Source of the DNA: a virus
Lineage: Duplodnaviria; Caudoviricetes
Length of the DNA: 64,000 nt
Strand: one strand, 5' to 3'
Virus record (IMG/VR): IMGVR_UViG_3300021255_000042
Location: 32,001 to 96,000 of that record
This document shows positions 4,311 through 7,726 of this stretch, in pieces (position 1 is the stretch's first letter; each line of letters starts with the position of its first letter). The notes below the pieces were generated by a model that saw only the letters and a list, made by a program, of their open reading frames with translations, had not been told where the DNA came from and did no database searches. A program made the position numbers and the translations under genes.

Positions 4311-4622
4311 ATGAACCAAATCGAAATTGAGGCGTATGGTTATTACAAGAAGCTCTATGCGCCACTTATCATCTTCTTCAGGACAGGCAATCTATGCAAG
4401 GCGTTCAAGGAGGACGCAAGCATGGTTGCCGGTGCGTTAAACCTTCCAGTTGAAAATGACAGCGTGTCCCTGGAAGCTGATGGGATTCTTGATGTTGTCG
4501 GAGAGCTTGCCGGTCTTGGTTTTCAGGCCAAGGTTATCGAAATGCGTGGCGAATCCGGCGACTTCGAGGTGCCTGACGTACAAAAATTACGGGAGGAACA
4601 GGAACTGGACGAAAATTTTTAG
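4311..4622 (+). CDS. Stand-alone MutS domain I-like protein
   Basis: YKKLY...IIFFRTGNLCKAFKEDA..VA..LNL resembles the MutS N-terminal domain. Confidence 0.5.
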   Translation: MNQIEIEAYGYYKKLYAPLIIFFRTGNLCKAFKEDASMVAGALNLPVENDSVSLEADGILDVVGELAGLGFQAKVIEMRGESGDFEVPDVQKLREEQELDENF

Positions 4623-4680
4623 ACTTAACGGTAACATTTTAGTTACATACGCGGGTTAACAGCCTGAACTACAACTCATA

Positions 4681-4735
4681 ACGCTGGGAATCAAGCGAAT
4701 TTAGCCTTAACGGTTAAGTTGCTGATTCCCAGCGT
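4681..4735. repeat. Long inverted repeat / hairpin
   Basis: Perfect 13-bp arms ACGCTGGGAATCA (4681-4693) and TGATTCCCAGCGT (4723-4735), with further inner pairing AATTTAGCC/GGTTAAGTT. Confidence 0.8.
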
Positions 4736-4762
4736 ATTACGTCTAATTTTGTGCCAAAATTT

Positions 4763-4794
4763 CTTGGTTTGAATAGGGTATTATGCTACCTTTG
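4763..4794 (+). promoter_or_regulatory. Probable Bacteroidetes promoter
   Basis: CTTG, 20-nt spacer, TACCTTTG (4787-4794) upstream of ORF 4832. Confidence 0.5.
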
Positions 4795-4831
4795 TAGAAC
4801 CCGCTTGGGGCATTAGTTGAAATAATCCATA

Positions 4832-5377
4832 TTGCAAATGAATAGTGTATCTATCATCTCAAACGAACCTCAGAAGAGGATTTACACGAAGCTCAAATTC
4901 ACAGCATCGGACAAGACAAATGCGACTGTCGGCTTCGTTTCCCAGAACTCTAAAACCGGTGAAATCCGTGGCGTGCGCCAGGACGATCCACACCCGAAGA
5001 AAATATGTGTGGTTGACCGGAAGCTCTCTTGTGACATTCTTCACAACACTCTCTACAACGTTACCTTGATTCCTATGAAGGACAAGGACGGCTACGTGGT
5101 AATCGAAGCAACGCCGGTACAGTTCCGGGCCGTCATCGAGACCACCTATGTCCCCAAGGCAATCTACCATATCGATGTCAAATTCGGCAATAAGAAACTC
5201 CAGTTCGACCCTAAGGATGGCCGTAAGGAATCCGTGAAACGGCTCGACCTTTGCCGCCGCGTCCTGGAAACCCGCGTTGACGTTCGTGATCTTCCCCAGG
5301 TGATGGAAGACTTTGACATCGCAGTTCGCAACCTCTTAAGAAAATACGAAAACGATGGCTTTATCTACAGGAACTAA
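4832..5377 (+). CDS. Hypothetical protein
   Basis: 181-aa ORF with coding-like codon usage. Confidence 0.75.
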   Translation: MQMNSVSIISNEPQKRIYTKLKFTASDKTNATVGFVSQNSKTGEIRGVRQDDPHPKKICVVDRKLSCDILHNTLYNVTLIPMKDKDGYVVIEATPVQFRAVIETTYVPKAIYHIDVKFGNKKLQFDPKDGRKESVKRLDLCRRVLETRVDVRDLPQVMEDFDIAVRNLLRKYENDGFIYRN

Positions 5378-5606
5378 TATCGAATTCAAGCGGGCCAAGC
5401 TTCCCAGGAAGAGGAAGAAGGCCGCTATCAAGGCCCAGGGCCGCAAGTGGTACTTTGACACCATCAGGCTTCACGAAATCTGTGTCAAGAACGGCACCTG
5501 CACGGAGCGCGTTTGCAAGTTCTGGAAGAATGATTCAATCAAAGCACGTCCTTTCATTGTCGGCGGCCAGCCCCGTATGATTCCCGTAGCAACACGATTC
5601 TGGTAG
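5355..5606 (+). CDS. Small highly basic protein (possible nucleic-acid binder)
   Basis: KRAKLPRKRKKAAIKAQGRKW; ends 3 nt before the first structured RNA. Confidence 0.65.
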   Translation: MALSTGTNIEFKRAKLPRKRKKAAIKAQGRKWYFDTIRLHEICVKNGTCTERVCKFWKNDSIKARPFIVGGQPRMIPVATRFW

Positions 5607-5609
5607 AAC

Positions 5610-5702
5610 AATGGGCAATCAAAGCCCTGGTGAGAACCACGGCCTTGGGACATTGCTACAGGTAGTCTCATTCAAATGCACACTCAGTCCCAGTTGCCCA
5701 TT
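5610..5702 (+). ncRNA. Putative three-way-junction structured RNA 1
   Basis: P1 AATGGGCAA/TTGCCCATT; P2 closed by GAGA tetraloop; P3 TGGGAC/GTCCCA; junctions TCAAA, CT and G. Confidence 0.55.
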
Positions 5703-5709
5703 TTATTAT

Positions 5710-5833
5710 AAATAGGCGGTTAAATTTAGGTGTGAGCTTAAAAAGTGAAGCACGTTATTACTTAAGTTTAACAAAATAAGAGTAGTTTCAATCCCTACAG
5801 CCTTTATGACCATTTGCTTCACGCCGCCTATTT
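5710..5833 (+). ncRNA. Putative three-way-junction structured RNA 2
   Basis: P1 AAATAGGCGG/CCGCCTATTT; P2 TTTAGGT-GTGA-GCTTAAA; P3 GTGAAGCA/TGCTTCAC; junctions TTAAA, AA and G. Confidence 0.55.
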
Positions 5834-5845
5834 TATATTTTGCTT

Positions 5846-6241
5846 ATGGAACGACCTACACGCGGCATCGCAACTGATGCGGCCCACTCAACAAAGAACG
5901 GCGTTACCGAGTATCAGGGAATTGACCTGGAAACCGGTGAACGCATTTTTTATCGGAACCTGGGAAATCAGACCGTGAACATCGGTGAGTTCCTGGGAGT
6001 TGTTGAGGCTGTGAAGTACATCATCGAGAACGACTTCCAGCCTCGGATCATCTATACCGACAGTACAACCGCAATCTCGTGGTTCAATGCGAAACAGACC
6101 GCCAGCAACAAGAAGAACAAGGAACTGAAGAAGGCCGAAATCTTCCTGAAGGCGTTGGCGTATGACGTTGACACAATTGAAGTAAAGCATTGGGATAACA
6201 GAAAATGGGGCGAAACCCCGGCAGACTTTGGAAATAAATGA
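5846..6241 (+). CDS. rnhA: Ribonuclease H (Bacteroides-type RNase HI catalytic domain)
   Basis: All four acidic catalytic positions present: TDAA, NIGEFL, IYTDS, WGETPADFG. Confidence 0.9.
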   Translation: MERPTRGIATDAAHSTKNGVTEYQGIDLETGERIFYRNLGNQTVNIGEFLGVVEAVKYIIENDFQPRIIYTDSTTAISWFNAKQTASNKKNKELKKAEIFLKALAYDVDTIEVKHWDNRKWGETPADFGNK

Positions 6242-6289
6242 CCATTTCGTGCCCCGCTTCTCCAGCTAACGTTCTATTCTATAATAGAT

Positions 6290-6361
6290 CGCGGGATGGA
6301 GAAGCGGTATCTCGTTGGGCCCATTACCCAAAGACCGGGGGTTCGAATCCCTCTCCCGCTA
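6290..6361 (+). tRNA. tRNA-fMet (CAT), initiator-type
   Basis: Cloverleaf with C1:T72 mismatch, GGG/CCC closing the anticodon stem, CAT anticodon and TTCGAAT T-loop. CCA is not encoded. Confidence 0.85.
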
Positions 6362-6392
6362 CAACTTAAGTCAAACAAAATTCATAACAGTT

Positions 6393-6644
6393 ATGACCGT
6401 CTTTCTCATTATCGCTATGGTGGTTCTCACCCTCCTCAGCATTCTCTTCGCTTTTATGGCTGGCTACGGCGCAGCCCTGAAGGATCGCTTGGAAAAGACC
6501 GAAAAGTCCAAGGAAGCTCTTAAGGCTCTCCTGGAATTCGCTAAGGGTTTCATCGAGTATATGAACTCGCATGAGGACGACCCTGAGCATCCTGAATCCA
6601 CCCAGGAACCCGAACCTGGAAAGGAAGAGGCCGCTGAAAAGTAA
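6393..6644 (+). CDS. Single-TM membrane protein with acidic tail
   Basis: Start MTVFLII at 6393, between the two tRNAs. Confidence 0.7.
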   Translation: MTVFLIIAMVVLTLLSILFAFMAGYGAALKDRLEKTEKSKEALKALLEFAKGFIEYMNSHEDDPEHPESTQEPEPGKEEAAEK

Positions 6645-6653
6645 GCAGCTGAT

Positions 6654-6725
6654 TGAAGTGTGATGTAACGGCAAGCATCTGGGATTTTGGTTCCCATCGT
6701 CCTGGTTCGAATCCGGGCACTTCAA
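6654..6725 (+). tRNA. tRNA-Gln (TTG)
   Basis: TGAAGTG/CACTTCA acceptor stem, TGGGA-TTTTGGT-TCCCA anticodon arm, CCTGG-TTCGAAT-CCGGG T arm. Confidence 0.9.
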
Positions 6726-6753
6726 CTATGATTCAATTCAAACTCAAAGCACA

Positions 6754-7359
6754 ATGAAGAAATCCATTTTTGCTCTGGCACTCGTTGCCATGATAGGAGC
6801 CGCACTTTGTAGCTCCTGCAAATGCGTTGGGCCGAAGCCCGAAGCAAGTCTCGAAATCGTTCCGATGGTAGAACTTTCCTTAGAGAACACCGTAGCCGCC
6901 GACCGCGAATATATGTTCGTCCACTATGGCAGCAGCTACCGGTGGTACGAATCCTGCATCATCCTGGACGAATACATGGACGCTGAGGAATGCACCGGCA
7001 GTATCGCAGGAATTTCCAACGTCTTCCAGTCCATTGAAGGCGAGGCACCTTCCTTCGATACTCACGTCATTCTGTTCTCCTACACCCGTGAAGCACATAA
7101 TATGGAAGTTAAGCACGCCTTCTGGGTTGAGGATTGTCCGTTGAATGAGGAAGTTATCAATATTAGCTACAAGGAAGCCTACGAGAAAATGATGGAGGCC
7201 AATTACCCTAAACCGCATTCGAAACACTGTGTGCTGCGGAAGGAGGTCGGCCCCTATGATTGCAACGCTCAGTATATTTTCGGTAACATCGAAGCTCAGA
7301 TTTACGTTGACGCTGTTACCGGCGCGGTAAGCGATCAAAGTCCGGCATTTAACAAGTAA
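6754..7359 (+). CDS. Lipoprotein with PepSY-like C-terminus
   Basis: MKK + hydrophobic signal + lipobox (LCSSC); C-terminal ISYKEA...IYVDAVTGAV. Confidence 0.65.
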   Translation: MKKSIFALALVAMIGAALCSSCKCVGPKPEASLEIVPMVELSLENTVAADREYMFVHYGSSYRWYESCIILDEYMDAEECTGSIAGISNVFQSIEGEAPSFDTHVILFSYTREAHNMEVKHAFWVEDCPLNEEVINISYKEAYEKMMEANYPKPHSKHCVLRKEVGPYDCNAQYIFGNIEAQIYVDAVTGAVSDQSPAFNK

Positions 7360-7365
7360 CGCCCA

Positions 7366-7647
7366 ATGAAAGAGTTCTTCAAAAAGATATTCGGCTGGCT
7401 CGGTGAAAGCAACCGCCTCAAACACCTAATCTGCGGTTTCATCATCGGTCTCAGCTGCGGCCTGGATGCCGGTCTCGTTGCCGGTTTTGCAGTCGAATAT
7501 AAGGACTGGGCATATCAGGGCTATTCCAAAGGCCTCAATCCCTTCCAGAAGGGAAGCGGCTGGGATTGGCTCGATGTGGCCGCAACCTCGCTCGGTGCCG
7601 TGCTTGGCTCACTCGTCAGGCTCCTGGTTATCGGGCGCATTCTGTAA
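7366..7647 (+). CDS. Small integral membrane protein
   Basis: KH...EYKD...WDWLDVAAT pattern, hydrophobic. Confidence 0.7.
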   Translation: MKEFFKKIFGWLGESNRLKHLICGFIIGLSCGLDAGLVAGFAVEYKDWAYQGYSKGLNPFQKGSGWDWLDVAATSLGAVLGSLVRLLVIGRIL

Positions 7648-7697
7648 TGAGCTCCAAAGCTTCTGCCTCTCTTTATATTCTTGCCCATCTTCTCCCC

Positions 7698-7726
7698 GCC
7701 CCGCAGTAATGCGGGGCAATTTTTTG
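7698..7726 (+). terminator. Probable intrinsic terminator
   Basis: GCCCCGCA-GTAA-TGCGGGGC followed by AATTTTTT. Confidence 0.65.

Follow-up and report, generated by a model that had tools for sequence, protein, structure and literature searches.

Two tandem three-way junctions between the basic-protein and RNase H genes of one rumen phage lineage: a probable terminator-derived element of recent assembly

What fills the 239 bp (5607-5845, + strand) between the stop codon of a small basic-protein gene and the start codon of an RNase H gene in a phage of the ruminant gut, and does it represent a family of phage RNAs? The stretch lies in a window of 64,000 nt (bases 32001-96000) taken from an IMG/VR phage record that is 109,728 bp long and has direct terminal repeats; positions below are those of the window unless genome coordinates are given. 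An earlier note on this DNA had described the gap as two tandem, structurally matched RNAs with fully different stems, had proposed them as a non-coding RNA family and had suggested that they work with the flanking proteins. The relatives of the source phage are phages and prophages of Bacteroidales of about 100-120 kb, including Bacteroides phage BS-TP1, and the studied stretch occurs in sequencing runs on gut samples of goat, sheep and cattle from about a dozen studies.

Every gene between 3149 and 7999 lies on the + strand. A 181-aa gene (4832-5377) is the upstream neighbour of the 83-aa basic-protein gene (5355-5606), and the RNase H gene (5846-6241), which matches PHROG 531 (E = 3e-9) and falls slightly below the cut-off for Pfam RNase_H, is followed by tRNA-Met (6290-6362) and tRNA-Gln (6654-6726), both identified by ARAGORN and Rfam. 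The tRNAs are thus located downstream of RNase H as previously described, although the supposed cluster consists of these two genes. The 181-aa gene is preceded by a long hairpin at 4681-4735, in which a perfect inverted repeat of 13 bp (ACGCTGGGAATCA...) surrounds a small inner hairpin. On the 3′ side of this structure is a Bacteroidetes-type -7 box, TACCTTTG at 4787-4794, preceded by TTTG (4768-4794); the two are probably a terminator and the promoter from which the operon containing the insert is transcribed. The basic protein, which has no match in Pfam or PHROG, is one of a family that comprises at least 94 clusters from phages and prophages of Bacteroidales (alignment A8), its closer relatives being 64-77% identical to it. 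The KLPRKRKKA.I.A.GR.WY block is invariant in this family, the C terminus reads ...FW, and the gene is almost always directly 5′ of the RNase H gene. Separately, an 11-bp perfect inverted repeat connects 6254-6264, just 3′ of RNase H, with 6297-6307 in the 5′ half of tRNA-Met (acceptor and D arm; CCGCTTCTCCA / TGGAGAAGCGG), and could form an alternative pre-tRNA structure.

Two tandem three-way junctions, here U1 and U2, are indeed present on the + strand, with every part of the geometry originally listed found in the sequence and reproduced by minimum free-energy folding. U1 (5610-5702) is closed by a P1 of nine perfect base pairs (5610-5618 / 5694-5702), from which the junction strand J1/2 (TCAAA, 5619-5623) leads into P2 (5624-5631 / 5636-5643), a stem of seven pairs and one C x C opposition capped by a GAGA loop. 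J2/3 (CT) then connects to the 6-bp P3 (5646-5651 / 5687-5692), which encloses a 35-nt loop (5652-5686) that varies between strains, and J3/1 is the single G5693. The unit is followed by a U-rich tail and spacer (5703-5709), which together with the end of the P1 3′ strand reads GCCCATTTTATTAT. U2 (5710-5833) repeats this arrangement with a P1 of ten perfect base pairs (5710-5719 / 5824-5833), J1/2 TTAAA (5720-5724), a 7-bp P2 (5725-5731 / 5736-5742) that includes two G.U pairs and has a GTGA loop, J2/3 AA, an 8-bp P3 (5745-5752 / 5815-5822), a 62-nt P3 loop (5753-5814) containing an extra hairpin, and G5823 as J3/1; its U-rich tail (TATATTTTGCTT, 5834-5845) is directly 5′ of the RNase H ATG. 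The stems are less different than had been claimed, since six of nine P1 pairs, four of five junction letters and three of four loop letters are identical in the two units, giving the consensus AATrGGCrr / yyGCCyATT for P1, TYAAA for the junction and GWGA for the P2 loop.

Both folds are more stable than those of shuffled sequences, with z scores of -2.7 (U1) and -4.3 (U2) on the + strand and weaker values of -2.35 and -1.84 on the - strand, and both junctions are retained when 5590-5860 is folded whole (z = -3.1). A descriptor of the layout matches only U1 and U2 on both strands of the window and in the 110-kb genome, compared with about 0.2 matches per shuffled window, a significance that is overstated because the descriptor was written post hoc from these same units. 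In a structure-fitted alignment of U1 and U2 (A7), all 22 shared pairs form in both units and 11 of them, three in P1, are changed on both sides, while sliding the partners abolishes pairing. Covariation within one genome, as asserted in the earlier note, is therefore found for half of the shared pairs, although it exists only between the two paralogous units; a covariance model built from U1 alone finds U2 weakly (10.4 bits, E = 2.3 in 64 kb). Should U2 be a diverged copy of U1, the 11 compensated pairs would argue for a selected fold.

Natural variants bear on the same point. The stem changes seen are limited to C>T at 5626 and at 5637 in the metagenome contig L070 and A>G at 5752 in the diverged bovine RNA-library contig X20, and all three keep pairing as G.U, which is possible on the + strand only. 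Together with the + strand fold and the G.U pairs of the units themselves, these variants mark the fold as one of RNA type and make a reading at the RNA level reasonable. The remaining changes fall in loops and spacers, including five substitutions and nine inserted nucleotides in the U1 loop of X20. We infer selection on the stems, but overall constraint on the insert cannot be demonstrated, since 3.8% of its positions differ from L070 compared with about 3.3% of the third codon positions of three flanking genes; the distribution of changes against L070 between stem (2 in 96 nt) and non-stem positions (7 in 143 nt) is likewise not significant.

How widely is this arrangement distributed? The distance from the basic-protein stop codon to the RNase H ATG is -1 to 14 nt in 33 viral loci and in 15 of 16 loci from bacterial genome assemblies, and it is this spacing in about 48 related Bacteroidales phage and prophage loci that identifies the 239-bp stretch as an insert. 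We found the insert only in one ruminant-gut lineage: in the window, in L070 (97.9% identical to the window over 6.2 kb), in DNA contigs from goat (X2) and bovine (X10) samples, and in X20. A covariance model of both units (R2; the U1-only model is R1) revealed no further credible copy in the rest of the genome, and no copy in 48 related phage records, in four MAGs with related prophages or in 151 sampled Bacteroidaceae genomes; its best stray matches, L128 and L137, were rejected as folding no better than shuffles. Degenerate motif scans of IMG/VR gave no hits in one case and a single chance hit in another, a pattern scan of JGI metagenomes returned one true relative (L070, of the same lineage) along with four chance hits, and blastn against 50,697 phage records produced no match within the insert. 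The proposal of an RNA family is thus not borne out, as these searches of the genome, phage records, MAGs and Bacteroidaceae genomes yielded nothing beyond the same-lineage variants L070, X2, X10 and X20. The suggested functional tie to the neighbouring proteins fares no better: basic-protein and RNase H genes lie side by side without the RNA in the ~48 related loci, and, as far as such comparisons of sequence can tell, the two proteins are not partners of the RNA in any detectable sense.

That the units belong to no named Rfam family was confirmed. At the gathering threshold, Rfam 15 (a test that took in hammerhead, twister, twister-sister, pistol, hatchet, riboswitches, tRNA, 5S and phi29 pRNA) matches the two tRNAs alone in the 64 kb, and a search of 5000-7000 with E up to 10 gave no credible overlap with 5607-5845; the overlaps listed are a 14-nt match to CRISPR-DR9 at 17 bits (threshold 45) and one to MIR4221 at 16.5 bits (threshold 100). 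We also rejected a tRNA or tRNA-like RNA, as ARAGORN and Rfam give only tRNA-Met and tRNA-Gln; the U2 loop does contain a T-loop-like TTCAATC, with a mismatched closing pair. A 34-codon open reading frame in U1 was discarded as a gene because it is frameshifted in L070.

The origin of the parts can be traced by comparison with L116, a prophage in a sheep-rumen Bacteroidaceae MAG. U1 opens with a relic of the RNase H start codon region (ATGGGCAATCAAAG): positions 5611-5628 (ATGGGCAATCAAAGCCCT), which supply the 5′ arm of P1, J1/2 and the start of P2, resemble the L116 RNase H start ATGGGAAATCAAAGACCA (encoding MGNQRP) more closely than any other part of the window does, with 13 of 14 and 15 of 18 letters identical. 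This relic lies 4 nt 3′ of the upstream stop codon, exactly where RNase H begins in the relatives, and the frame behind it is not conserved, L070 being frameshifted. The match to L116 thus indicates that the 5′ arm of P1 and the TCAAA junction of U1 are a dead gene start. The 5′ end of U2 (ATAGGCGGTTAAAT) is a second, more decayed copy of the relic, with 9 of 14 letters matching U1. The letters shared by the TYAAA/P1 scaffold, which had been taken for a designed junction, are accordingly relics of the RNase H gene start. A pattern for the relic start gave 69 chance hits in IMG/VR, none of them adjoining an RNase H or basic-protein gene.

The other parts resemble a terminator. Between the same two genes, L116 has a 61-nt spacer that forms a textbook terminator hairpin, flagged by the terminator scan, in which AAGGCCGTG, a loop and CACGGCCTT are followed by TTATTCATTT. 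This spacer aligns to U1 at 5638-5660, with an equal score in 1 of 300 shuffles, and to the 3′ end of U2 (TTGCTTCACG..GCC..TTTTAT), with an equal score in 2 of 300. The U1 P2 3′ strand (CACGGCCTT) agrees with its counterpart in the L116 hairpin at nine of nine letters; the tails of the two units, CCCATTTTATTAT and GCCTATTTTATATTTTG, match the L116 tail, and the reading after U1 (GCCCATTTTATTAT) is homologous to the L116 terminator tail GGCCTTTTATTCAT. The insert would then consist of two diverged tandem copies of one module of about 100 nt, each with a decayed RNase H start first and a GC-rich strand and terminator-like U-rich tail last. In the simplest history, recombination or duplication at the RNase H start would have been followed by tandem duplication of the module of relic start, hairpins and tail. 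U1-U2 is in these terms an element private to one rumen phage lineage, recently assembled and derived from a terminator. As for L116 itself (1729-1797), its spacer starts with AATCATCAAGGCC, in which codons 3-6 of the L116 RNase H gene (AATCAAAGACC) are nearly repeated in direct orientation, so that the L116 terminator hairpin may also be built on a duplicated gene start, to judge from this repeat.

What, then, could the element do? The reading that we favour, tentatively and with a confidence somewhat short of even, is that U1-U2 acts in cis on the operon RNA as a partial terminator or 3′-end stabiliser. As in intrinsic terminators, each unit has a GC-rich core, an A-rich 5′ side and a U-rich tract directly 3′ (GGGC...GCCC then ATTTTATTAT in U1; GGCGG...CCGCC then TATTTTATATTTTG in U2), and the homologous L116 terminator occupies the same site. 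Unlike the short-loop hairpins of intrinsic terminators, with loops of about 3-8 nt, the closing stem P1 holds 75 nt in U1 and 104 nt in U2 together with two further helices, and these very long loops are a weak point of the terminator version. A consensus terminator scan of 4500-7000 gave no + strand terminator. The units also differ from ordinary terminators in standing in tandem, and termination by them would have to be leaky. We observed no convincing Bacteroidetes promoter (TTTG...TAnnTTTG) inside or after U2, where TATATTTTG, 3 nt 5′ of the RNase H ATG, has one T too many, and RNase H and the tRNAs therefore need read-through.

A hint that the insert is transcribed comes from a 213-nt contig of a bovine metatranscriptome, which runs from 5621 to 5823 and joins U1 to U2 without extending into the flanking genes; it is a single assembled contig of low depth for which DNA carry-over is possible. 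Since it bridges the two units, U1 at least would be leaky, and the extent of the contig hints weakly at a stable structured RNA of about 230 nt. The RNA data consist of assembled contigs throughout, and gaps in the cover of RNA runs do not count as evidence; a further run (X19), in which cover is confined to a relative's basic-protein gene, is uninformative on the insert.

A mechanism is proposed in which each module folds as a Y-shaped three-way junction on the + strand operon transcript, with the relic start paired, as closing stem P1, to the strand just 5′ of the U tract. The resulting layout would have a core rich in GC, a flank rich in A and a U tract inherited from the terminator. Acting in cis, the modules could bring about leaky termination, or could obstruct 3′ exonucleases and processing, at a site that separates the early operon (4832-5606) from the block of RNase H and tRNA genes. 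Expression of RNase H and the tRNAs would be lowered relative to the upstream genes, and a stable structured RNA fragment of about 230 nt would be left over. Among the functions listed in the earlier note, a processing signal comes near to this reading, whereas a guide or antisense role finds no support in the loops, which have no excess complementarity to the phage genome.

Elements of a comparable kind are known. The REP/BIME intercistronic stabilisers and the RNase III hairpins of T7 are structured, often tandem and lineage-specific, lie between co-transcribed genes, and shape the 3′ ends and relative expression of the genes that flank them. REPs are multi-copy and spread by transposases, and T7 RNase III sites are single long irregular hairpins. 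U1 and U2 are similarly structured, tandem and placed between co-transcribed genes, but they occupy one locus, take the form of two three-way junctions and are predicted from sequence. If the cis-acting reading is true, the element would be ordinary in kind, as a terminator or stabiliser between cistrons, and unusual in its branched and duplicated form. Its chief value would be evolutionary, since its parts are traceable to the dead start codon region of an RNase H gene and to the simple terminator hairpin that a sister prophage has: a complex RNA fold would have been quickly assembled from local scraps, opening no new RNA family and providing no RNA partner for the flanking proteins.

The strongest rival, which we consider possible but doubtful, is that the fold has no function and is a neutral by-product, a tandem duplication at the RNase H start together with inverted copying by template switching during replication having made the perfect stems and kept them so. 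In PMC8794818, template switching during replication is described as creating and maintaining hairpins with perfect stems from local sequence, including apparent compensatory changes that arise without selection. Restriction of the insert to a single lineage, the recognisable origin of its parts as relics of a gene start and a neighbouring hairpin, and a divergence from L070 close to the synonymous rate would all be expected on this account, and perfect inverted repeats of at least 9 bp are about twice as common in the genome as in shuffled sequence. The hairpins described in PMC8794818 are simple, whereas U1 and U2 have a nested three-helix layout, twice, with equal junction lengths, GNRA loops in both and 11 of 22 pairs compensated. 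Further points against a neutral origin are the compatibility of the stem variants with wobble pairing on the + strand only, the distance of 75-104 nt between P1 partners, which is long for template switches, and the persistence of the insert across samples (goat, bovine and source) that belong to different studies.

We regard as unlikely a second rival in which the insert gives rise to one or more trans-acting small RNAs, either one processed RNA that spans U1-U2 (about 230 nt) or two separate RNAs, with the scaffold conferring stability and the loops or the P2 apex binding a protein or RNA target. It would account for the RNA-library contig that is limited to U1-U2, for a closed architecture with paired 5′ and 3′ ends like that of stable RNAs, and for a U1 loop that differs between strains in sequence and length. 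A possible target exists within the same transcription unit, as the U1 P2 apex GGTGAGAACCAC (5629-5640) has a perfect 12-nt complement, GTGGTTCTCACC, at 6420-6431 in a small membrane-protein ORF between the tRNAs; shuffled queries reach at most 11 nt, with an estimated p of about 0.03 before correction for multiple tests. The position beside tRNA genes recalls rnaC and rnaD of T4, small structured RNAs of unassigned function whose 5′ and 3′ ends are paired and which are conserved across many phages. U1 and U2 share the tRNA neighbourhood and the paired ends, but they are limited to one lineage and have no sequence or model similarity to catalogued RNAs. A trans-acting RNA would also have to do without a promoter of its own and without homologues elsewhere (the genome, 48 records, four MAGs and 151 Bacteroidaceae genomes), its loops do not exceed shuffled ones in complementarity to the phage genome, the letters of its scaffold are coding relics, and about 48 related loci manage without the insert. 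Slightly less likely again is the specific proposal of a discrete, stable phage ncRNA of about 230 nt, recently born from a dead gene start and a terminator hairpin and acting in trans, with its two Y-shaped domains and strain-variable loops, as a protein decoy or antisense RNA, for example via pairing of the U1 P2 apex with 6420-6431; if true, it would be a rare case of the birth of a structured RNA gene caught in progress.

The possibility that the insert works at the DNA level, as a MITE- or REP-like mobile insert, a recombination site or a single-strand DNA structure, is very unlikely. The stretch is an insertion relative to related phages, inverted repeats bracket each unit, and an integrase gene and attP region lie 2-3 kb downstream. 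Yet it occurs at one locus only, with no copy in the phage, its 48 relatives, the four MAGs or the 151 Bacteroidaceae genomes, and its borders have no visible target-site duplication or shared terminal repeats. The G.U pairs and wobble variants become A x C mismatches on the other strand, and the - strand folds are the weaker ones.

The same genome contains, at C1:24691-29585 (L063 692-5586), a gene for a 421-aa reverse transcriptase (RT) followed by two arrays with 12 units in all, each of about 135-195 nt, dominated by one long bulged hairpin and ending in AATC-N7-TA[CGT]AG-nnATGyA. That U1 and U2 are orphan units of these arrays (genome 25970-29585, about 8-12 kb upstream) and serve as extra RT templates is barely credible: 12 structured, sequence-diverse units and an RT do occur in one genome, and both U loops have TACAG preceded by (C)AAT, loosely like AATC-N7-TAnAG, but an nhmmer profile of the units matches 12 of 12 (E 5e-17 to 6e-6) and nothing at genome 37607-37845, R2 does not match the arrays, the motif AATC-N7-TA[CGT]AG is absent from the insert as a regular expression, the spacing is 3 nt in the U loops compared with 7-8 nt in the arrays, a match of 8-9 of 12 letters between two loops is by our estimate expected by chance, and the units, put at 155-195 nt for this comparison, are unlike U1 and U2 in size and layout.

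Two other regions of the genome deserve mention in their own right. Many perfect short-loop hairpins are found at C1:8268-8999 and 7442-7723, including a 21-bp perfect inverted repeat at 7657-7723 (genome coordinates). In the window, a 93-aa membrane-protein gene (7366-7647) differs from L070 at 8.9% of sites, compared with about 2% for the surrounding 6 kb, and is a local hotspot of divergence.
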